From assembly GCA_011050465.1 (NCBI GenBank), contig DRFQ01000001.1, positions 37,225 to 101,224 on the forward strand: DNA of 64,000 bases, given 5' to 3'. The stretch is from Candidatus Nealsonbacteria bacterium (lineage in GTDB: Bacteria > Patescibacteriota > Minisyncoccia > Minisyncoccales > RBG-13-36-15). Under the pieces are notes generated by a model. That model saw only the letters and a program-made list of their open reading frames with translations. It was not told where the DNA came from and did no database searches. The stretch's first letter is position 1. Each line of letters begins with the position of its first letter. This document shows positions 1,152 to 52,777 of the stretch, one piece after another. The position numbers and the translations under genes were made by a program.

Positions 1152-1820
1152 TTAAGATTTATTTATTTTTTTAACAACAAATAATACCTGCTGAGTTATA
1201 AGGAGCGAGGGATATTTCTTTTTATAAATAACTTTGAGGTTCGCTTTTTCAAAAATTTTTTCCCATTCAGAAATTTTTTTAAAATTAAACGGCATATTGG
1301 TAGTTTCTTTCACGAATTTAGTCAAAAGACAAAACGCCAAATTCGTAACTATATCTTTAAAATAAAGTACGAATCTGCCAAAGCTTAAACTATATACGTC
1401 TTCAATGATAATTATTTTATCTTTTGTTACTCGAGCAGTTTCTTTTAAAACTTCTACGGGTTTTTCACAGTGATGAAGAACGCATATCAAGAAAGACACA
1501 TCGAAATTATCTGCAAGAAATGGTATCTTTTTGCCGTCATAGAGAACCAACTTAAAATCAGTCTGATTGAAATCAATCACATCTAAAAGAGTAATCTTTG
1601 CGTCTTTCCTCTTTTGGAGTTCCCTGCTAATCCATCCTCCTCCCGCCCCAATATCTAAAACTTTTTCTCCTGGTTCGATAAACTCTTCGAAAACATCTAC
1701 TGTTTTCGCGGTCATGTGTTTTATTATTCTATCCAGCAATGATCTCAAAGGAAGATAACGGTAATATTTGTTTTTAAGGGTGAATTCTTTGCTCATTATT
1801 TTTCTTACCAGATAGTGCAC
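1152..1820 (-). CDS. class I SAM-dependent methyltransferase
   Basis: VLDIGAGGGW glycine-rich SAM-binding motif I. The track start at 1820 is a GTG inside a hairpin, so the ATG at 1796 (MSKEFTLKN...) is a more likely start. Confidence 0.8.
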   Translation of the reverse strand: MHYLVRKIMSKEFTLKNKYYRYLPLRSLLDRIIKHMTAKTVDVFEEFIEPGEKVLDIGAGGGWISRELQKRKDAKITLLDVIDFNQTDFKLVLYDGKKIPFLADNFDVSFLICVLHHCEKPVEVLKETARVTKDKIIIIEDVYSLSFGRFVLYFKDIVTNLAFCLLTKFVKETTNMPFNFKKISEWEKIFEKANLKVIYKKKYPSLLITQQVLFVVKKINKS

Positions 1821-1836: not shown

Positions 1837-2061
1837 CTATCTCCCTTCGGACAGCCCCTTTGTTAAAGAGGCTGGGTCGTCTCGGGTTTTCTCGCCTATC
1901 TGGTCCAGCCTCTCAACTGAAAGTTGAGGGCTGTCGGAATTTGATTTATTCAAATTCCGAGACGAAGAAATAAATAAATTTTTAGCTGCCTCCCAAATTT
2001 CCGGCTGGTTTTGTTTTGTTTTCATCCAGAACCACCATTCGTCGCTTCGTTCCTTAGACAC
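1837..2061 (-). pseudogene. fragment duplicating the C-terminus of the adjacent glycoside hydrolase
   Basis: The 74-aa ORF begins ...DEWWFWMKTKQNQPEIWEAAKNLF. This parallels the end of the upstream 351-aa protein (AEWWFWMKSVQNNSQIWDEARNLF). The 19-nt string CATCCAGAACCACCATTCG is identical at 2023-2041 and 2228-2246. There is no convincing start or SD. Confidence 0.5.
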
Positions 2062-2155
2062 CTTCGGTTTCTAACGGTCGCCTTCGGCGACCTGTTTTTC
2101 CACCACGGGGAGATACCCAATCTCCCCGACCCCCTCTTTGCGAATGGTGGTTCTG
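2027..2155. repeat. structured element, copy A, bounded by a 15-bp perfect inverted repeat
   Basis: CAGAACCACCATTCG (2027-2041) pairs with CGAATGGTGGTTCTG (2141-2155). The interior has hairpins GGTCGCC-TTC-GGCGACC and GGGGAGA-TACCCAA-TCTCCCC. Confidence 0.8.
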
Positions 2156-2158
2156 AAT

Positions 2159-3214
2159 CTATTGTTCTTGGGTAAGAAATAGATTTCTTGCTTCATCCCA
2201 TATCTGAGAATTATTCTGAACACTCTTCATCCAGAACCACCATTCGGCTCCCCATAAATAAAACTCCTTGAAGCCGGTTCTTTTAGCAAATTCAATATTT
2301 TCTTTAAATTGAGTTGGATTCATTGTCTTTTGTTGCTCTTCAATTGGTGAATCATAAAGTAGTTTTTTCCCCCAAGGTTCAGCTTGAAGCTCAATTACTA
2401 TGACTTCTTTGCCAAATATTTTTTTAATAATCTGGGCTTTCCGCCAGTAAAAAGTTGGAGGAAAAGGATAATGTATATACATCCCTATCTGTCTAAACCC
2501 TCCTAAGTTTTTTTTCAAAAAATTTGGGAGGGTAAACCAGACCTTTTTATACATTGTCGTGCCTATGATATCTCCAAATCTGGCAGCTGTAATCCACAGG
2601 GACCCTTCTCCGCTATCTGAAATAATAACCGGCCTCTTTAAACGGTCTATAGATTTTACCAGTTCTATCTCTTTTTTCAAGAACACTTTATCAACCCAGG
2701 GACACTCGCCAAAAGGAAAAAATGGTTCGTTCTCTATTTGCCAATACTTGATGGTTTCTGAATTTTTATATCTATTAACAATTTTTTCTAACATTCTCAA
2801 AATCTTTTTTTGTTGCTGGTCTTTCGTTAGATTTTTTGCCCAATTGGGAGTGTGGCATTCCGGCCAGCGAGGAGTTTTCATGCCAATCGCTAAAAGAATT
2901 TGAGCTTCTCTTTTCTCGGCCTCCTCTATTTGCCAATCTAAGTCTCCAAAATTAAAATTTCCATCTTCTGGCTCAATTGAATCCCAGTGGGCGGCTACTT
3001 TCAAATTTTTTACTTCCAAATCATCAAGTAAGGCCAAATAGGTTTCTTGCCAATCTAATCCTAAAAGACTGGCGTGTTTTTGGGAAAAATTAACTCCCCA
3101 AATAATATCTTTAGCTATTGGCGGCTTCCCGATGAAAAGATAACCGGCAAAGACCAAAAGTAAAACAAAAATTCCCAATAGAATATATTTTAAAATCTTC
3201 TTAAATTTTTTCAT
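2159..3214 (-). CDS. membrane-anchored glycoside hydrolase (clan GH-A / GH5-like TIM barrel)
   Basis: 351 aa with an N-terminal TM helix. It has an ...YWQIENEPF motif (the NEP catalytic acid/base typical of GH-A enzymes). Confidence 0.55.
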   Translation of the reverse strand: MKKFKKILKYILLGIFVLLLVFAGYLFIGKPPIAKDIIWGVNFSQKHASLLGLDWQETYLALLDDLEVKNLKVAAHWDSIEPEDGNFNFGDLDWQIEEAEKREAQILLAIGMKTPRWPECHTPNWAKNLTKDQQQKKILRMLEKIVNRYKNSETIKYWQIENEPFFPFGECPWVDKVFLKKEIELVKSIDRLKRPVIISDSGEGSLWITAARFGDIIGTTMYKKVWFTLPNFLKKNLGGFRQIGMYIHYPFPPTFYWRKAQIIKKIFGKEVIVIELQAEPWGKKLLYDSPIEEQQKTMNPTQFKENIEFAKRTGFKEFYLWGAEWWFWMKSVQNNSQIWDEARNLFLTQEQ

Positions 3215-4157: not shown

Positions 4158-5522
4158 TTAGTACGGGGTCTGCACTATACGTTTGATATTATAAGTTCCT
4201 AATTTTTCTCCTTCTATAAAGCCCTGCATAGCGAACTCGGCAAGATAACCTTTCTCCAGCCAGTCAAAAAGCCACTGATTGGTATAGGCTGGGTTTTCCT
4301 GTAGAATACCAAAGCCCGATTTTAAAAGCCATCTCATATTAAATTCTTCTTGAGAACCGATTGGCGGGGCGATAATTATCGGCAATCCCAGGGCAGAATA
4401 AAAAGAAAGCTCTGATGGCTTTGTCCATAAAATATCGGTCTTTCTTAAGGCACGATTAAAATCTTGGAAATAACCCCCAATATCTTTTTCAAAAATTATT
4501 TCAACGTTTTTTTGTAAATACTCTTTGAGGCCTAATTTTTCTATATTTTTTTCAAAATATTCTCTTACTTTTTCTCTAATACCGGCTGCTAAAATTATTT
4601 TAATTTCATTTTTTTTGATTTTTTTAGCCAGGCTTTGAATAATCTTTATTCCAATTTCTTTTTGAGCTCCGGCTCCGCCAACAACAAACATTATTGTTAA
4701 AGAATGGTCAGGTTTTTCAGCTAATTTACCCAATTTTTTTTCAATTAATATGCTGTATTTTTCGAAATATTTTTTTTGGGGGTCTAAGTTCAGCATTCTA
4801 TATCTCAGGTCGGCTCTTAAAGTGTCCAATTTTACGCCCCCGATATTTTCCGAGGGCAAAGGAAAACCGGTCAAAAAGATATTCTTTGGTTTCACCCCAT
4901 ATAGCTTTAATCTTTCTACTACTCTTGTGGTTGGAGCAAAATACTTAATTTTGCTCGATCTTGGTTTTAAAGAAACCCAAGCCCTGGAAATGTCAGCATC
5001 GCAAATTACACAAAAAATTTCGCCTGGATAATTAAAAAATTCGGCCATAAAAGCTGGAATAAAAAAGGTGCTGATTAGAAAAAGAGGTTTTTGTTTGAGT
5101 CTCTCAATGAAATGCTTCCCCCAGTCTCTTTTGATTAAGGAAAAGACTTGTTTTAGTTGAAAGCTTGGCTTTGATAAATCTCTTTTTGGATAAAAACTAA
5201 GAATCTTCTGAAATTGATCAAAGATAAAAAAAACAGCCCGACCAATTAAGGGAATTCTTTTGAAAATTGAAACAAATTCGTAGAACTTCTTTGTGCTCTC
5301 CCAAATTTTTCGATCTTTCTCCGGAATCCCTTGATAGTCGTTGGCATTAATAATTTTCCCTTCAGGAGATAGTCCCTTTAAGGGGTGGGCTGTTCTCTGA
5401 TGGCCATAGCCCATATTTACAGATATTATCCAGGCCCGCCTAAATTTTTGGGATATTTCCTGATTCCTTATTATTTCTGACGACTTATTCAAAAATTTAG
5501 GTGGGCAGGCTTTTTGCTTCAT
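4158..5522 (-). CDS. putative glycosyltransferase (GT-B, MGDG-synthase/MurG-like); weak call
   Basis: 454 aa. It has an NMGYGHQRTAHPL motif near the N-terminus and a VVGGAGAQKE glycine-rich motif mid-protein, as in GT28-like enzymes. The assignment comes from motif memory only. Confidence 0.35.
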   Translation of the reverse strand: MKQKACPPKFLNKSSEIIRNQEISQKFRRAWIISVNMGYGHQRTAHPLKGLSPEGKIINANDYQGIPEKDRKIWESTKKFYEFVSIFKRIPLIGRAVFFIFDQFQKILSFYPKRDLSKPSFQLKQVFSLIKRDWGKHFIERLKQKPLFLISTFFIPAFMAEFFNYPGEIFCVICDADISRAWVSLKPRSSKIKYFAPTTRVVERLKLYGVKPKNIFLTGFPLPSENIGGVKLDTLRADLRYRMLNLDPQKKYFEKYSILIEKKLGKLAEKPDHSLTIMFVVGGAGAQKEIGIKIIQSLAKKIKKNEIKIILAAGIREKVREYFEKNIEKLGLKEYLQKNVEIIFEKDIGGYFQDFNRALRKTDILWTKPSELSFYSALGLPIIIAPPIGSQEEFNMRWLLKSGFGILQENPAYTNQWLFDWLEKGYLAEFAMQGFIEGEKLGTYNIKRIVQTPY

Positions 5523-7498: not shown

Positions 7499-7600
7499 AC
7501 AAAAAACCGCCTTCTTGGCGATTGATAAAGTTAACTAACAACTAAAAACTATAAACTAAAAACTAGAAAAATGGGTCGTCTAGCGGATGAGATTAGAACC
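7499..7600. repeat. junction repeat J5: terminator module plus AT-rich TAAAAACT-type tract plus T-arm-like fragment
   Basis: 7499-7568 is near-identical to 48031-48100 (CAAAAAACCGCCTTCTTGGCGATTnATAAAGTTAACTAAnAACTAAAAACTATAAACTAA...). 7576-7600 (GTCGTCTAGCGGATGAGATTAGAACC) is related to 8291-8311. Confidence 0.8.
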
Positions 7601-28149: not shown

Positions 28150-28233
28150 GCCGCGGTGGCGGAATTGGTTTACGCGTACGACTCAAAATCGTATGACCGA
28201 AAGGTCGTGTGGGTTCGAGTCCCACCCGCGGCA
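28150..28233 (+). tRNA. tRNA-Leu (anticodon CAA), type II with long variable arm, CCA not encoded
   Basis: Manual fold. Acceptor GCCGCGG/CCGCGGC, anticodon stem TACGA/TCGTA with loop CTCAAAA, variable arm GACC-GAAA-GGTC, T-arm GTGGG-TTCGAGT-CCCAC, discriminator A. Confidence 0.95.
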
Positions 28234-29192: not shown

Positions 29193-30521
29193 TTACCGAC
29201 CTAAAATATCGTTAATCTTAGCTCGGGTAGTTGAACCAACAAAACCAGTACCTTCCGTTAATCCCCAAGGAGCTAAGATATCTTCAGCATATTTTTCCTG
29301 AAAGCGAATTACTGCCTTCTTAGTTAAAGGACCAAACCAACCAGACACTATGCCTTCAGGATAAATCTCAGGACCTTGGGCTTTTAAGAAGATCTGTAAG
29401 TATCTGACGTCATCATTTGTCTGGTCATATTTAAGATTAATGGTGAATCTGTAATTAGTTGGGATTTCTTCAGTGACCTCCTTTTCCAAAAGTTGTTGAA
29501 GCTGAACTTTTAATTGGTTAATCTTTTCTGAAATTTCAGCAATCTTTTGTTTAAGTTCCTCAACGGTCATCTCAACAATTGGTTTTTCTTTTATCTCTCC
29601 CATTAGGGCAAACAAAGTAAAGTGGATGGTCTGGGCAGTGACAGTGTTAGTTAATGTGTTAACTTCGCTTTTCAATGGTTTCCAGCTTTTAGTAGTTTTA
29701 TCCCACCAGTAAATCTTGAGAGTCTTTTCATCAACCCCGACTTCTTTTACTTTTGCATCTGTATAGGTAAAAGTAATCGCCACTACTCCCTCAAATTTTT
29801 CTAATTCTTCTCCTCCAGAAAGAGCTGTAAAATCAGCTACTAAGTCACCAACTATTTTAGTATTTTTAGGTAAGGGATTGGTTTTAATTGCCTCAACTTT
29901 ATCTTTTGGCTCAATTTTAACTACCACTGTTCCCTTAATGCTGTAGGAAGGAAAAACTACTTTAGCTAACTCTCCAGATTCAAAGGTTTTTCTAACCTCT
30001 CCTCCTAAATTTTGATAAACATTACCTTGACCGGTAGTGCTGACTGGTGGAGAAATAACTCCACCACCACCAGTAACAACAACTGTTTTTCTCCAGCTTG
30101 TATTAATATTGCAATTAGCACAACTAAAACTAATCCAGCCCACATTTTCTCCCCAGGCATAACCTGAAAAATCACCGGTTGAACCATCAATAATTACCTG
30201 AGAACCAGTGGGATTGAAATTTATCCAACCAACATTCTCGCCCCAGGCATATCCTGAAAGATTACCCTGACCGTCATTGGTTACCCCGCCATAAGTAGGG
30301 TTGAGATTAATCCAACCAACATTTTCTCCCCAGGCATAGCCAGCAACTGCGCTATTTGTTACCGTTACCCCCTCGCCCTGGCTGGGATTAAAGTTGATCC
30401 AGCCCGCGTTTTCTCCCCAAGCGTAACCCGTGGTGTTTCCGGCAGCCCAAACTGGAAAGGCGAAGAAAAATCCTACCCATAAAATGACGGCAAGGAGAGT
30501 ATATTTTGTATTTTGGAACAT
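29193..30521 (-). CDS. secreted repeat protein with C-terminal peptidoglycan-binding domain
   Basis: 442 aa. It has a signal peptide (...FAFPVWAAG), four GYAWGENxGWI(N/S)F repeats, a coiled-coil segment, and a C-terminal PG_binding_1-like motif (VRYLQIFLKAQG...GWFGPLTKKAVIRFQEKY). Confidence 0.7.
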   Translation of the reverse strand: MFQNTKYTLLAVILWVGFFFAFPVWAAGNTTGYAWGENAGWINFNPSQGEGVTVTNSAVAGYAWGENVGWINLNPTYGGVTNDGQGNLSGYAWGENVGWINFNPTGSQVIIDGSTGDFSGYAWGENVGWISFSCANCNINTSWRKTVVVTGGGGVISPPVSTTGQGNVYQNLGGEVRKTFESGELAKVVFPSYSIKGTVVVKIEPKDKVEAIKTNPLPKNTKIVGDLVADFTALSGGEELEKFEGVVAITFTYTDAKVKEVGVDEKTLKIYWWDKTTKSWKPLKSEVNTLTNTVTAQTIHFTLFALMGEIKEKPIVEMTVEELKQKIAEISEKINQLKVQLQQLLEKEVTEEIPTNYRFTINLKYDQTNDDVRYLQIFLKAQGPEIYPEGIVSGWFGPLTKKAVIRFQEKYAEDILAPWGLTEGTGFVGSTTRAKINDILGR

Positions 30522-30926: not shown

Positions 30927-32636
30927 CTACCCGCGGACGCAACGGACATACAAAAGAAAAGTATCCTTATCGTAGCCGTCCACGCCGCCGGTGCCGAAGA
31001 ACACGACCCAGGCGCCGGCAGGGTTACCGACGAAGGTAGAACCCGACCAATAGTAGCTAGACTGAGTAGCGGGGAAATAAGTGGTGTTAATAGCTGGGCT
31101 AACATTTTGGTAATTAACAATGCTTTGCAGTTCTTTTATATTGGGCAATCTCCAGTCAGTCTGGCCGGCAAAATTAAGTCCTTCGCAGTACGAAGGAGCA
31201 GCTGCCCAATAATTAGTTTCAATCGTACCGGTGGTGCAAGTTGAGCCGGAAAGGCCTTTTGAACATTTCTGCCACATTAAATTAGTGTTGTTATCGGTGA
31301 TGGTCTCGTCTCCGTTGTCAGTAAATGACGGATCGAGGGTCCCGGAGTTTGCAGCAGTGTATTCAGCATCCTGCCCCGCTGGAGCATCACCGCAGGTTAT
31401 TGAGCCTCCCGTTGTGTTCCAACAGCCGGTTTGACCAGTATCGGGAAGAAGCCTTTTAAAGGTTCCGGCCACCCCAAATATGGAAATTCCGCTTTTAATG
31501 TTGCCTGCAGTCAGATCAGCATCTCCTTCAGCATAACCAGTGCCATTGTGATAACCTTGGGTAATGGTCAGGTTAGTAGTCGAGGGAGTAATAGTCTGCT
31601 GACCGACATTAGTCATTGTGCCGGTTAAAAGAGCGCCGGCTTTTGTCCAGGCCTCAAGTCCTGAGAGGATGTTGCCAACCACAGCGTCACCAGCCCCAGT
31701 ATCCCCGGGTAGAGCATAAGTGGCCGAAGGATAATCGCCGGTTAGTCCTACGCCAAAAAGAGTGTCTTTTTTTACCGTGCCAACAGTAAGATTGGCCGCG
31801 TTGTAAGTTCCGGCTCCGGCAGCCGTAGTTAAAACCGTGCTCTGGATTGTATCGCCGTAAGGATAACCGGCTGTAACGGTTCCGGCGATTCCAAAAATGG
31901 TTTTCCCGCTCAAAATATTGCCTGCTATCAAATCAATATCCACCGCGTCCAATGTTGTCGCGCTGTAATAGCCGGCGCTTACAGAGGTAGTGGCGGCTGA
32001 TAAAGTTTGAGTCGGCATTGTGCCGGTGATAAGCGCGCCTGCCTTGCTCCAAGCTTCCAAACCGCTTAAAATATCTGCGGCAGTACTGTCAGCAGCCGCG
32101 GTATCCCCGGGCAGAGTATAAGTGGCCGAAGGATAATCGCCAATCACGCTGAAAAGATCTACCCCGCTTTTTATCTTGCCCACAGTCAAATCAGCATCTC
32201 CTTCAGCATATCCTGTCCCATCGTGATAACCTAAGGTAATGGTCTGATTGGTTGTAGTGGGAGTAATAATCTGTTGTCCTACATTAGTCATTGTGCCAGC
32301 TACTCCCAAATAAGAAGTGCCAGAAAGCACTTTAGCAGCATCAATGGTGGGGATAGCTTCGTAAATCTGGGTGAGAGTATACATTGAGGAAGCTGGTGAG
32401 ACTGAAGGAGAAAATGAATGATCGCCTTCAGTGGAAGTAGCGTTGGTAGTTAAACGGGTATAGATATTTGAAAGGGTATACATAGTGGCTGCCGGCGAAG
32501 CCGAGGGTTCAAGATTGCCGGCTTTGACGATAACGAAGACAATGGCTACAGAAATGATGATGGTGACAAAACTTAGGAAAATTGTCCTGAATCTGTTCAT
32601 AGTTTTACGCAAAAATACAAAGTATTTCTTTTGCAC
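30927..32636 (-). CDS. membrane-anchored surface protein with internal duplications and a C-terminal DUF1566/C-type-lectin-fold domain (DGR-target type)
   Basis: 569 aa with an N-terminal TM anchor and repeated modules. The C-terminus is ...DWRLPNIKELQSI...YYWSGSTFVGNPAGAWVVFFGTGGVDGYDKDTFLLYVRCVRG*. The gene is visibly more GC-rich than its surroundings. Confidence 0.7.
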   Translation of the reverse strand: MQKKYFVFLRKTMNRFRTIFLSFVTIIISVAIVFVIVKAGNLEPSASPAATMYTLSNIYTRLTTNATSTEGDHSFSPSVSPASSMYTLTQIYEAIPTIDAAKVLSGTSYLGVAGTMTNVGQQIITPTTTNQTITLGYHDGTGYAEGDADLTVGKIKSGVDLFSVIGDYPSATYTLPGDTAAADSTAADILSGLEAWSKAGALITGTMPTQTLSAATTSVSAGYYSATTLDAVDIDLIAGNILSGKTIFGIAGTVTAGYPYGDTIQSTVLTTAAGAGTYNAANLTVGTVKKDTLFGVGLTGDYPSATYALPGDTGAGDAVVGNILSGLEAWTKAGALLTGTMTNVGQQTITPSTTNLTITQGYHNGTGYAEGDADLTAGNIKSGISIFGVAGTFKRLLPDTGQTGCWNTTGGSITCGDAPAGQDAEYTAANSGTLDPSFTDNGDETITDNNTNLMWQKCSKGLSGSTCTTGTIETNYWAAAPSYCEGLNFAGQTDWRLPNIKELQSIVNYQNVSPAINTTYFPATQSSYYWSGSTFVGNPAGAWVVFFGTGGVDGYDKDTFLLYVRCVRG

Positions 32637-48029: not shown

Positions 48030-48143
48030 CCAAAAAACCGCCTTCTTGGCGATTTATAAAGTTAACTAATAACTAAAAACTATAAACTAATAACTGAAAA
48101 TTACTTTGTAATTTTTATTGGCTCCGCGGGTAGGAATCTCACT
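48030..48143. repeat. junction repeat J3: terminator module plus AT-rich tract plus tRNA-3'-end-like fragment
   Basis: 48031-48100 is near-identical to 7499-7568. 48122-48143 in reverse complement reads GTGAGATTCCTACCCGCGGAGC(CA), which resembles the T-arm/acceptor 3' half of the tRNA-Leu at 28211-28233. Confidence 0.75.
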
Positions 48144-48145
48144 GC

Positions 48146-48288
48146 TCGCTTCGCTGCGCTTTAGACACCCACGGCACTTCGTCCTGAGCTCAGTATCGAA
48201 GGATTTCTAACGTTTTCGCCTCAACGGCGAAAGCCTGTTTTCCTACACGGGAAAACACCCAGTTTTCCCGACCCCTTTCTGTGGTTCT
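48146..48288. repeat. structured element, copy B (homologous to 2042-2154)
   Basis: It shares the blocks TCGCTTCG, TTAGACACC, TTTCTAACG, a CGCC-loop-GGCGA hairpin, CCTGTTTT, CACGGG..hairpin..CCCGACCCC and TGGTTCT. Hairpin stems differ by compensatory changes. Confidence 0.75.
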
Positions 48289-48478
48289 CATCCTCCCCCT
48301 CCGCAATCATCACAAATCAAAAACACCCATAAAGGGTGTCTTGATTTTGGGAGCTCCCCCTATTGGACGCGTTTAGAACCATTGATTGGAGAAAGATGAG
48401 GGAAGAATTAGATAAATTAGCTCCTTTGGTTGCGGGACTTGGACGGTGTTAGAAGCTGTTTATTGTAGAGTATTTAAA

Positions 48479-48997: not shown

Positions 48998-49026
48998 AAT
49001 TATTAGCGTTTTATTTTTCTATTCTA

Positions 49027-50236: not shown

Positions 50237-52777
50237 TTAAATCACGATATTGATTAATTTTCCCGGGACGAAGATCACTCTCTTAATTGTTCTACTTTTT
50301 AACCATTTTTTTACTTTTTCCAGGGAAGTTGCCAATTCTCTGGCTTTTTTTTCTGAAATACCAGCTTCAACATCAATTTTATCACGGACTTTACCATTTA
50401 TCTGAATAATCATCACTATAACCTTTTCTTTAATTAATTTTGGGTTATATTTTGGCCAAGGTTGATTATGAATGGAGTTTCGTATATTAAAATGTTTATC
50501 CTCCGACCCTCGTCGGCCGTAGCCGACTTCGGTCGGCGAAGGCCGAAGCTTTCTAGTCAAAGAGGACCAGAGCTCTTCGGTCAAATAAGGAGTGAAGGGC
50601 GATAAAATTTTCAAGAAATTTTTAAAATCCTCTTTTCCTAATCCATCCTTTCCTTCTATTTGCCAGGCATTACAAAATTCCATTAATGAGCTAACAGCTG
50701 TGTTAAATTTTAAAGACTCAATATCTTCTGAAACTTTTTTAATTGTTCTGTGGAGTATTTTTTTCAAATCTAGGGAGCCTTGAGATTCTGGAGCAGCAAG
50801 AAATTGTCCGGCTAATTTCCAAACTCTTTCCAAAAACCTTTTAGATCCCTTTACTCCTTTCGTGTCCCAGGCAATCATTTGTTTAAAGGGCCCCATAAAC
50901 ATCTCGTAAATTCTCAGAGTATCGGCACCATATTCTTCTATAATTTGTTCAGGACGTATAACATTGCCTTTGGACTTGGACATTTTAATTCCTCCCTCGC
51001 CAAGAATTATTCCGTGAGAAGTTCGTTTTTTGTAAGGTTCTGAGCCAAGAGATTTTGGTACAGCCCTGATATCCCACAAAAATTTATAGATAAAACGAGA
51101 ATATAATAAATGTAAGGTGGTATGCTCCATGCCCCCATTGTACCAGTCCACCGGCATCCAATATTTAAGTAATTTCTGATCGGCTAACTTTTTTTCGTTT
51201 TTAGGGTCGCAATAGCGAAGGTAATACCAATTGGAACCTGCCCAGTTTGGCATAACATCGGTTTCTCTCTTAGCTTTGCGGTCGCATTTTGGACATTTAG
51301 TGTTCACCCATTTCTCAAGGGCTGCCAACGGAGATTCGCCGGTCTCGGTGGGCTGATATTTTTCAACAAGGGGGAGTTCAACCGGTAAATCCTTTTCTGG
51401 TACAGACACCCAGCCACATCCTTCACACCTAACCATTGGAATTGGCTCTCCCCAATATCTTTGGCGAGAAAAAATCCAATCTCTTAATTTATAATTGATC
51501 GTTTTTTTTGCCAGACGCTTGCTGGCTAGCCACTCAATAATTCTTTCTTTTGCCGCCCCGGATTTCATTCCATTAAATCTGCCAGAATTAATTAATATCC
51601 CTTCTCCTTCATAGGCCCTCTCCTTGAGTCCACCTGAAACGACCAAAGAAGCTCTTTTTGAAGTTGACCTTGAGGGCTGCGCAGGGTGGATTACCTCAAT
51701 TATTGGCAGGTTATATTTTCTGGTAAAATCAAGGTCTCTTTGGTCGTGAGCAGGTACTGCCATAATGGCTCCGGTACCGTAGTGAATTAAAACATAATCT
51801 GCTATAAAAATTGAAATTTGCCGATTGTTTATTGGATTAATGGCTTTAACTCCCCTAATTTCTACTCCAGTTTTTTCTTTAATCTCGCTTAGTCTTTCTT
51901 TTTCAGTTTTCTTCTTGGCTTGTTCAATATATTTCTTAACGCTTTCTAAATTCTCAATTTTTGATTCTAATTGTTCAATTACCGGATACTCCGGAGATAA
52001 AACTAAATACGTACAACCAGATAAAGTGTCTGGCCTAGTGGTAAATACGGAAATCTCGTGTTTCGTGCTTTTAATTTTGAATTTTATTTCTGTTCCTTCG
52101 GATTTTCCTATCCAATCTCTTTGTAACGTTTTGACTCTTTCTGGATAATCAATGTTATCTAAATCTTTAATCAATCTCTCGGCGTATTTGGTGATTTTTA
52201 ACATCCACTGTTCTTTTTCTTTTTTAATAACTTTTTGACCGCAGCGTTCACAGTGACCATCGACTACTTCTTCATTGGCCAAACCGATCTTGCACGAGGG
52301 ACACCAATTGATTGGTATCTCGGCTTTATAAGCCAAACCCTTTTTAAAAAGTTGGACAAATATCCATTGGGTCCATCTGTAATAAGCCGGGTCGGTAGTG
52401 TTAATTTCTCGGCTCCAATCAAAAGAAAGTCCTAGTCTTTTTTCCTGACGTTTAAAAAAAGCGGCGTTTTTCTCGGTAACGGTTCTTGGATGAATCCCCG
52501 TCTTGACGGCGTAGTTTTCGGTTGGAAGCCCGAAAGCATCCCAACCCATCGGGAACAAAACATTAAACCCCTCCATCCTTCTTTTCCGAGCAATAATGTC
52601 TAAGGCTATATAACTCCGGCAATGTCCTACGTGCAATCCTTCACCCGATGGGTAAGGAAATTCAACTAAAATATAGCTTTTTGGTTTTCTAAGCAAGTCT
52701 TTGGCTAGATAAAAATCTCTTTCTTCCCAAATCCTCTGCCACTTCTTTTCAATTTTTTGCGGATTATATATCTCCAT
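50237..52777 (-). CDS. leuS: leucyl-tRNA synthetase
   Basis: 846 aa with the HIGH-type motif EGLHVGH, KMSKSKGN, a CP1 editing domain and Zn-binding CxxC pairs. Confidence 0.95.
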   Translation of the reverse strand: MEIYNPQKIEKKWQRIWEERDFYLAKDLLRKPKSYILVEFPYPSGEGLHVGHCRSYIALDIIARKRRMEGFNVLFPMGWDAFGLPTENYAVKTGIHPRTVTEKNAAFFKRQEKRLGLSFDWSREINTTDPAYYRWTQWIFVQLFKKGLAYKAEIPINWCPSCKIGLANEEVVDGHCERCGQKVIKKEKEQWMLKITKYAERLIKDLDNIDYPERVKTLQRDWIGKSEGTEIKFKIKSTKHEISVFTTRPDTLSGCTYLVLSPEYPVIEQLESKIENLESVKKYIEQAKKKTEKERLSEIKEKTGVEIRGVKAINPINNRQISIFIADYVLIHYGTGAIMAVPAHDQRDLDFTRKYNLPIIEVIHPAQPSRSTSKRASLVVSGGLKERAYEGEGILINSGRFNGMKSGAAKERIIEWLASKRLAKKTINYKLRDWIFSRQRYWGEPIPMVRCEGCGWVSVPEKDLPVELPLVEKYQPTETGESPLAALEKWVNTKCPKCDRKAKRETDVMPNWAGSNWYYLRYCDPKNEKKLADQKLLKYWMPVDWYNGGMEHTTLHLLYSRFIYKFLWDIRAVPKSLGSEPYKKRTSHGIILGEGGIKMSKSKGNVIRPEQIIEEYGADTLRIYEMFMGPFKQMIAWDTKGVKGSKRFLERVWKLAGQFLAAPESQGSLDLKKILHRTIKKVSEDIESLKFNTAVSSLMEFCNAWQIEGKDGLGKEDFKNFLKILSPFTPYLTEELWSSLTRKLRPSPTEVGYGRRGSEDKHFNIRNSIHNQPWPKYNPKLIKEKVIVMIIQINGKVRDKIDVEAGISEKKARELATSLEKVKKWLKSRTIKRVIFVPGKLINIVI

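Follow-up and report, generated by a model that had tools for sequence, protein, structure and literature searches.

The 64,000-nucleotide stretch analyzed here (the window; Candidatus Nealsonbacteria bacterium, GenBank assembly GCA_011050465.1, contig DRFQ01000001.1, positions 37,225 to 101,224 of the forward strand) contains two copies, A and B, of a folded, geneless element. We propose that this element is a non-autonomous mobile element of Patescibacteria whose active part is a folded single strand, a reading to which we assign a probability of about 0.5. The element is an inserted, selected and folded module that travels with a copy of the end of its target gene, and it belongs to a large family in Patescibacteria, hitherto undescribed, whose members are ~100 bases long, folded and located just past the ends of conserved genes. 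A preliminary description of the window had reported a two-copy element with ordered sequence blocks and two hairpins whose stems differ between the copies yet stay paired. Copies, blocks, hairpins and preserved pairing were all recovered at the same places, and the emphasis on structure stands; the restriction to two copies does not, as more than 100 have now been sampled. That description had also overlooked how large the family is and that it sits at the 3′ ends of genes, along with the direct repeats, the foreign gene end and the triplex signal.

The two copies share, in the same order, the blocks TCGCTTCG, TTAGACACC, TTTCTAACG, CCTGTTTT, CAC, GACCCC and GGTTCT. Their parts in the window are as follows.

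2042–2140, plus strand: element core of copy A, from GTCGCT... to ...CTCTTTG; covariance model match at 2041–2142 with 89.2 bits; missing from the empty site of a related genome (L122).
2054–2074, plus strand: hairpin P2 of copy A, arms 2054–2062 and 2066–2074; TTAGACACC / TTC / GGTTTCTAA, with apex C(UUCG)G.
2076–2092, plus strand: hairpin P3 of copy A (hairpin 1 of the preliminary description), arms 2076–2082 and 2086–2092; GGTCGCC/GGCGACC, then TGTTTTT; an optional module.
2107–2127, plus strand: hairpin P4 of copy A (hairpin 2 of the preliminary description), arms 2107–2114 and 2120–2127; purine strand GGGGAGAT, loop ACCCA, pyrimidine strand ATCTCCCC.
2128–2137, plus strand: GA turn and candidate third strand of copy A, CCCCCTCT; a mirror of the P4 3′ strand, parallel to GGGGAGA.
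48145–48284, plus strand: element core of copy B; covariance model match with 63.8 bits.

In copy B, P2 occupies 48161–48169 and 48202–48210, P3 occupies 48212–48234 (stem GTTTTCGCC/GGCGAAAGC at 48212–48220/48226–48234), P4 occupies 48249–48269 (stem GGGAAAAC/GTTTTCCC at 48249–48256/48262–48269, loop ACCCA) and the candidate third strand lies at 48272–48278. The extra ~35 nt that had been ascribed to this copy is a real insert, but it measures ~30 nt and falls within the loop of P2, a hairpin overlooked in the preliminary description. A covariance model search of the 64-kb window returned exactly these two copies, with scores of 89 bits (E-value 3e-24) for copy A and 64 bits (9e-17) for copy B; a 15.9-bit match at 51552, inside the LeuRS gene and without P4, was rejected as a third.

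Searches of other genomes revealed the extent of the family. An exact-pattern scan for P4 (CACGGG-N4-7-ACCCA-N4-7-CCCGACCCC), with one genome per species, gave at least 120 loci, and about 95 of the matches listed are true copies with a perfectly paired stem and all neighboring blocks. Among those matches, nearly all true copies occur in metagenome-assembled genomes of Patescibacteria (Staskawicz-, Nealson-, Yanofsky-, Zambryski-, Wildermuth- and Portnoybacteria, Paceibacterota and Saccharibacteria), and several genomes each hold many copies; GC-rich matches outside Patescibacteria are unpaired and were discarded as chance. A covariance model made from 38 copies found 110 copies in 99 sources, with a conserved core of 85–150 nt. 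The preliminary description had recognized no standard RNA family, and ours agrees: an Rfam 15 scan of the window at the gathering threshold matched a tRNA-Leu alone, permissive scans around both copies (E-values up to 10) yielded noise alone, with E-values of at least 1.6, and ARAGORN detects no tRNA-like domain in the copies, which sets aside tRNA and tmRNA. A full-text search of the literature found no description of the element, and BLAST searches of phage and plasmid collections found no match to it; the single viral contig that matched the pattern did so by chance, in a GC-rich coding region. One true copy (72 bits, L048, JADFQH010000057.1) lies on a contig labeled as a Methanobacteriota archaeon, which is probably mis-binned Patescibacteria and would otherwise represent cross-domain occurrence. 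Tandem copies ~130 nt apart are present at L028 (5352–5433 and 5489–5570) and L104 (2648–2732 and 2777–2878), and L007, L027 and L079 are among the loci with two or three copies in the same orientation, 2–3 kb apart, one behind each successive gene.

The covariance model and covariation test that the preliminary description had suggested gave a strong signal. In the alignment of 110 copies, pairing holds in 97.3% of cells and 14 of the 17 pairs show double changes, with 278 compensatory cells; none of 500 shuffles reached these values, and sliding the partners by one to three columns abolished the signal. These results strongly support the earlier conclusion that the fold is under selection as a structure and is not a decaying duplicate, with P2 and P4 both covarying heavily. 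In P2 (TTAGAAACC/GGTTTCTAA), all nine pairs show double changes, including purine–pyrimidine flips, and the apex reads C(YNCG)G in ~80 of 110 copies, as C(CACG)G, C(CUCG)G or C(UUCG)G; a few other copies besides copy B carry inserts in the P2 loop. Five of the eight P4 pairs covary, by transitions alone, and thus the 5′ strand of P4 is always purine. The 5′ end of the element reads GTCGCT...CGCTCC, often with a small inserted hairpin. P3 is optional, with a joiner of at most 14 nt that leaves no room for it in 49 of the 110 copies. Hairpin 1 had been suggested to be an intrinsic terminator, and P3 of copy A is indeed flagged as terminator-like on the plus strand, with TGTTTT following P3 in copies A and B, but a module for which so many copies have no room is not a terminator common to the family.

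P4 is followed by GA and then by a pyrimidine run that mirrors its 3′ strand, as in TCTCCCC-GA-CCCCCTCT (copy A), TCCTCCC-GA-CCCCTCCT and TTTCCCC-GA-CCCCCTTT. Aligned in parallel with the purine strand, this tail places C opposite G and T opposite A, so that stems with AAA, AGA or AGGA have tails with TTT, TCT or TCCT, and the lengths of the G and C runs are coupled, with three Gs in the stem accompanied by four Cs in the tail and four Gs by five Cs. The tail is a perfect parallel complement in 73 of 102 copies, whereas 2,000 trials with shuffled tails averaged 32.7 such copies and never exceeded 47, although related copies in these counts are not independent observations. Because the variable part of the tail lies outside the search pattern, the match was not imposed by the search. 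A mirror repeat of this kind is incapable of Watson–Crick pairing and is not made by any copying process. Single-strand pyrimidine-motif triplexes are classically built in the order purine strand, loop, pyrimidine strand, turn and pyrimidine strand, and from this order and the mirror covariation we infer that the element strand likely forms an intramolecular triple helix. The preliminary description had listed GACCCC as a conserved block; the block is present, and what is new here is that, together with the bases that follow, it behaves as a third strand that covaries with P4 as a mirror repeat. In known triplexes, including H-DNA, single strands with a purine–loop–pyrimidine–loop–pyrimidine order and the MALAT1 ENE, the Hoogsteen pyrimidine strand runs parallel to the purine strand. 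The element shows the same strand order, but differs in being C-rich (three to five C•G-C triples), in its residence in a putative mobile element and in having neither an A-rich tail nor a known stabilizing role. A second candidate triplex, between P2 and the TTTCC joiner, was rejected when its registers proved inconsistent by eye.

The element occupies a characteristic genomic position. Viewed in the orientation of the element, 69 of 88 copies have an opposite-strand gene to their right, its stop codon typically 2–60 nt away, whereas the strand of the gene to the left is unbiased (43:42). The element therefore sits just past the 3′ end of a gene and antisense to it. The 59 opposite-strand host open reading frames (ORFs) include those for uS9 (eight), uL11 (five), uS7 (three) and EF-G (three), as well as PolX, UvrC, PGK, GAPDH, uS10 and a Mur ligase. 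Further copies lie behind tRNA genes, where the T-loop-like flanks are copies of the ends of the host tRNAs.

Roughly half of the copies are flanked by direct repeats of 15–113 nt that are 86–100% identical, end exactly at the 5′ end of the element and resume 10–100 nt past it; examples measure 113 nt (L016), 89 nt (L095), 74 nt (L089), 64 nt (L020) and 63 nt (L005). The general order is gene-end copy, element, inverted piece, spacer and gene-end copy. The inverted repeat that hugs the element differs from copy to copy, and contains a perfect run of at least 8 nt in 38% of 103 copies (6% of mismatched-flank controls) and of at least 10 nt in 17% (1% of controls). Around copy A, these repeats are arranged as follows.

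2027–2041, plus strand: left arm of the closing inverted repeat, CAGAACCACCATTCG; the end of a displaced gene fragment, coding for EWWF in the ORF at 1837–2061.
2141–2155, plus strand: right arm of the same inverted repeat, CGAATGGTGGTTCTG; it repeats the target core in inverted form, arrived with the insert and has no counterpart at the empty site.
2021–2041, no strand assigned: direct-repeat core, copy 1; stops exactly at the 5′ end of the element.
2226–2246, no strand assigned: direct-repeat core, copy 2, TTCATCCAGAACCACCATTCG; within the working gene, 21 nt, 100% identical to 2021–2041.

The perfect 15-nt inverted repeat around copy A, with EWWF encoded in its left arm, had been seen previously and is present; it is not a fixed end of the element, however, but a copy-specific feature made from the target gene. 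For copy B, neither a flanking inverted repeat nor a direct repeat was found. In the L095 locus (4460–4800), the 89-nt direct repeat itself contains the inverted piece, making the duplicated unit inverted core, gene end and core, which is unlike the footprint of a simple single insertion. The right flank is enriched in TGG (found in 51 of 109 copies, compared with 7 of 109 in the next segment), perhaps because certain targets are preferred or because TGG pairs with the ACCCA loop.

Copy A separates a glycoside-hydrolase-like gene (2159–3214, minus strand) from a methyltransferase gene (1152–1820, minus strand). The closest homologue of the glycosidase, P0002 (~86% identity), lies in the same gene order of EamA-like protein, glycosidase, methyltransferase and glycosyltransferase. 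At the L122 empty site, 5 nt separate the glycosidase stop codon from the methyltransferase start and there is no element; the corresponding interval in the window spans 338 nt. Two glycosidase gene ends can be distinguished in the window.

1968–2041, minus strand: displaced native 3′ end of the glycosidase gene, EWWFWMKTKQNQPEIWEAAKNLFI..., which fits the C-terminus of P0002.
2159–2225, minus strand: present 3′ end of the glycosidase gene, ..MKSVQNNSQIWDEARNLFLTQEQ*, which is foreign to the lineage by comparison with homologue C-termini and the L122 alignment.

P0002 ends in ...WMKTKQNQPEIWEAAKNLFIF, to be compared with EWWFWMKTKQNQPEIWEAAKNLFI in the fragment that had been called a pseudogene, and the displaced end is ~94% identical to the DNA of the P0002 gene, a value read by eye from printed sequences across stretches that the aligner left unpaired. 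The working C-terminus, WMKSVQNNSQIWDEARNLFLTQEQ, resembles those of other lineages (P0013, P0054 and P0067). By these comparisons, the ‘pseudogene’ is the displaced native C-terminus of the glycosidase and the working C-terminus is foreign, which upholds and extends the earlier view of the fragment. Moreover, the nearest relatives have EW(I/F/L)YW at the core whereas both cores in the window encode EWWFW, so both core copies were apparently imported; in that case, the right junction would fall within ~9 shared bases (CTGGATGAA). Glycosidase homologues of 43–62% identity (L095, L007, L071 and L105) carry the element at the same EWW(F/Y)W codons, and homologues of 74–85% identity (L122, L123 and L124) lack it, a patchy distribution that implies site-specific spread or repeated loss.

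Other small inserts occur at the same gene end. The P0013 gene lacks the element and carries a different structured insert of ~130 nt directly past its stop codon (L123, 2590–2720; also L124), indicating that the end of the glycosidase gene draws several kinds of small insert. In the window, a second GC-rich structured insert fills 1815–1967, from the displaced fragment to the methyltransferase start, and is likewise missing from the L122 empty site. It has an RNAfold energy of −65.5 kcal/mol (z = −6.2), its first hairpin loop carries TCGCTTCGCTC, a motif also present at the 5′ end of the element, and the insert may be related to the element or act as its partner.

Copy B has a small ORF on one side and a GNAT acetyltransferase gene on the other, and adjoins a putative tRNA-like remnant.

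48120–48138, minus strand: putative remnant resembling a tRNA 3′ end, GATTCCTACCCGCGGAGCC; similar to the flanks of the tRNA-associated copies L013, L106, L100 and L037.

The flanks of copy B look like degraded versions of a tRNA 3′ end, similar to what is seen beside the tRNA-associated copies. Within 48320–48478 on the minus strand, between the stop codon of the GNAT gene and copy B, GGTTCTAAACGCGTCCAATAGGGGGAGCTCCCA precedes a terminator at 48342–48320. This stretch looks like a tRNA 3′ end, is called by neither ARAGORN nor Rfam, and may be the decayed host of copy B. In the window, ARAGORN finds a tRNA-Leu at 28150 as the sole tRNA, and none at the flank of copy B.

How might such an element move? 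We propose that a single strand of the element’s polarity would fold into a multi-helix junction composed of the 5′ hairpin, P2, the optional P3 and P4, that the pyrimidine run would fold back on P4 as a third strand, and that the whole fold would be closed by a copy-specific helix formed by a piece of the target gene and its inverted copy. The folded core could serve as a handle recognized by a trans-acting enzyme, with the target-derived stem presenting or recognizing the target in the manner of the folded single-stranded attC and CTX-phage attP sites. The element would insert within or immediately past the 3′ end of a conserved, highly expressed gene, in antisense orientation, and the host gene would stay intact because the inserted unit supplies a copy of the gene end. 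In gene orientation, the unit in the window would comprise a core, the foreign C-terminus, its stop codon, the inverted core, the element in reverse complement and again a core, and its arrival would have pushed the native C-terminus downstream to become the ‘pseudogene’. Spread between genomes within the same gene could rely on short identity at the core; the window encodes the competence protein ComEC, which makes DNA uptake and homology-assisted recombination between genomes plausible. The alternative raised in the preliminary description, a DNA structure used in recombination, remains viable.

Several known systems share some of these properties. REP/REPIN, Correia, RUP and Rickettsia palindromic elements are small, non-coding, multicopy, strongly folded and geneless, often lie at gene ends and, in the case of the Rickettsia elements, can occupy coding regions. 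Our element resembles these and MITE-like repeats (miniature inverted-repeat transposable elements) in its small size, folding, lack of genes and location at gene ends, but differs from bacterial interspersed repeats in its target-made closing repeat, the replacement gene end that it carries and its triple-helix signature. The preliminary description had allowed for a MITE or an insertion-sequence end; terminal inverted repeats belonging to the element itself are absent, and the phage and plasmid collections gave no match. Its ends, GTCGCT... and ...CTNTGTG, are not inverted repeats of one another, the flanking inverted repeat is copy-specific and derived from the target, and the long direct repeats vary in length and are parted from the element by the inverted piece, instead of forming the fixed short target duplication of a MITE. 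Elements derived from IS200/IS605 (PATE and REPIN) have subterminal hairpins, a fixed tetra- or pentanucleotide and no duplication, and were rejected on account of the long duplications and target-derived inverted repeat. Diversity-generating retroelements, with template and variable repeats (TR/VR), were also rejected; our repeats differ at every locus, the differences are not adenine-specific and the neighbors include no reverse transcriptase.

Integron attC sites and the attP(+) site of CTX phage are sequences of ~60–150 nt, located after genes, that act as folded single strands whose stem mimics a duplex recombination site, and the recombinase need not be encoded nearby. The element is similar in size and in its position after genes. 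It fails a defining feature of attC sites, in which conserved R′′ (RYYYAAC) and R′ (GTTRRRY) boxes accompany a variable center, whereas the element has a conserved center and outer arms that are unconstrained apart from the enriched TGG; near the element, we saw no integron integrase context or cassette array, and no integrase among its neighbors. Integrative elements at the 3′ ends of tRNAs and other genes share gene-end direct repeats, a displaced native end, conserved-gene or tRNA targets and patchy occupancy of a single site, but our whole insert is only ~200 bp, has no integrase or cargo and bears the core once more in inverted form. Inserts without a mobility gene, described in 2010 (PMC2853133), are also flanked by direct repeats tens to hundreds of base pairs long, some of which overlap gene 3′ ends. 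Those inserts are restriction-modification genes for which no inverted piece was described, unlike the conserved 100-nt folded element studied here.

A number of observations weigh against a mobile element that acts as a folded single strand. Among the neighbors of the element on both sides, and near the copies in the window, there is no enriched or linked transposase, integrase or reverse transcriptase, and no TnpA, TnpB or RAYT; the acting enzyme was not found among these neighbors and no autonomous relative was seen. No distant direct-repeat partners enclosing cargo were found beyond 300 nt, and about half of the copies, copy B among them, have no clear flanking repeats. Transformation and homology-assisted recombination alone might suffice for transfer between genomes, and our model gives no account of how the inverted copy of a new target forms. 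Four to five adjacent C+•G-C triples are unfavorable at neutral pH. The strand itself presents difficulties. The opposite strand folds slightly better in silico, by a mean of 2.8 kcal/mol, G-U pairs make up 8 of 1,823 cells, and the confinement of C(UUCG)G and other YNCG loops to the element strand (CTTCGG occurs 25 times on it and never on the opposite strand) gives the element an RNA-like look. As guides to which strand acts, we set aside folding energy, a composition effect that is not decisive, G-U pairs, whose number is too small, and GC skew relative to gene orientation, as the ~75% bias in both is inseparable.

The RNA-like features raise the question of whether the element is mainly a functional structured RNA for which mobility is secondary, one that blocks or terminates antisense transcription into highly expressed genes or serves as an antisense or scaffold RNA, with the triplex and tetraloops as stabilizers. 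A multi-helix junction with C(YNCG)G loops on the element strand alone, a pyrimidine-motif third strand of a chemistry that functions in RNA, a hairpin followed by a U-rich run and a core under strong purifying selection between diverging flanks would all suit an RNA. Nevertheless, the strand is antisense to its neighbors, G-U pairs are nearly absent, the terminator-like P3 is missing from 45% of copies, and the long direct repeats, target-derived inverted repeat and imported gene end would be left unaccounted for; we consider a primary RNA function unlikely. No promoter signal is evident upstream of copy A, which, for a strand with RNA-like loops, counts against this explanation and the mobile single-strand reading alike. 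An RNA could also be the vehicle of movement. If a read-through transcript of the host gene carried the reverse complement of the element, a nicked target could prime reverse transcription through the core, as in a short interspersed nuclear element (SINE); staggered nicks would produce long, variable duplications, and the complementary DNA, of element polarity, would fold, triplex included, and snap back to generate the inverted copy. The reverse complement of the element is indeed co-oriented with and directly downstream of the host gene, the hosts are abundant transcripts and tRNAs, the duplications are long and variable in length and the inverted piece occurs at a single junction. By contrast, no linked reverse transcriptase is found among the neighbors, tRNA-hosted copies have a terminator between the tRNA and the element, no tail or other hallmark of retrotransposition is present and, to our knowledge, target-primed retrotransposition of the SINE type is not known in bacteria. 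We judge this route improbable.

The remaining explanations fare worse. In a cis-regulatory switch resembling a riboswitch or attenuator, the 3′ arm of the closing helix would have a choice of two partners, the upstream arm and the downstream direct repeat, alternatives that the order of arm, core, inverted arm and arm permits. The element, however, lies downstream of and antisense to functionally unrelated housekeeping genes and not before them, which also excludes an ordinary riboswitch or leader, its direct repeats of up to 113 nt far exceed what a switch needs and half of the copies have no such repeats, making a switch very improbable. Chance resemblance or a decaying local duplicate might have been entertained if nothing but the two copies in the window were known; given their E-values, the many copies in other genomes and the covariation of the family, its probability is close to negligible. 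Mobility as a folded single strand is thus the reading we prefer. More tentatively, and with somewhat less than even odds, the element could define a new class of mobile element, a protein-less unit of ~100 nt that homes to the 3′ ends of conserved genes and tRNAs, builds its closing stem from the target, carries a spare gene end and depends on a triplex-forming single strand. It would operate either as a folded single-stranded DNA site served by a host enzyme or as a SINE-like retroelement, mechanisms that are both so far undescribed for bacterial repeats.

The window contains additional repeats. A 70-nt repeat, 93% identical between 7500–7569 and 48031–48100 and with weaker copies at 49024 and 50174, consists of a minus-strand terminator (AAATCGCCAAGAAGGCGGTTTTTT) and an AT-rich run (AACTAAAAACTATAAACTAA); beside it, at 7570–7600 on the minus strand, lies GGTTCTAATCTCATCCGCTAGACGACCCA, which resembles a tRNA 3′ end like that at the flank of copy B. 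Tandem repeats of 87–90 nt occupy 30093–30428 inside the ORF at 29193–30521, and a 139-nt repeat pair (83% identical) together with repeats spaced by 402 nt occupies 31489–32302 inside the ORF at 30927–32636, where the local GC content is 50%. Both ORFs probably encode repeat-domain surface proteins.

More broadly, Patescibacteria have tiny genomes with scant non-coding DNA, and yet this element recurs across many of their lineages beside genes for ribosomal proteins, EF-G and tRNAs. A geneless insert of ~200 bp that swaps gene ends between lineages constitutes a path of horizontal change invisible to gene-based annotation, and the ‘pseudogene’ fragments that its insertion makes could be misread; the covariance model offers a practical means of masking or annotating the element in assemblies of the candidate phyla radiation. 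If the third strand is physically real, it would constitute an unusually clear natural example of a sequence-variable intramolecular triplex under selection, and would offer a handle toward the enzyme that moves the element. On balance, the finding is real: a structured element, undescribed until now, is widespread in these genomes and is likely to form a triple helix. The chances seem about even that it is mobile in the way proposed here, with an unusual mode of insertion at gene ends.

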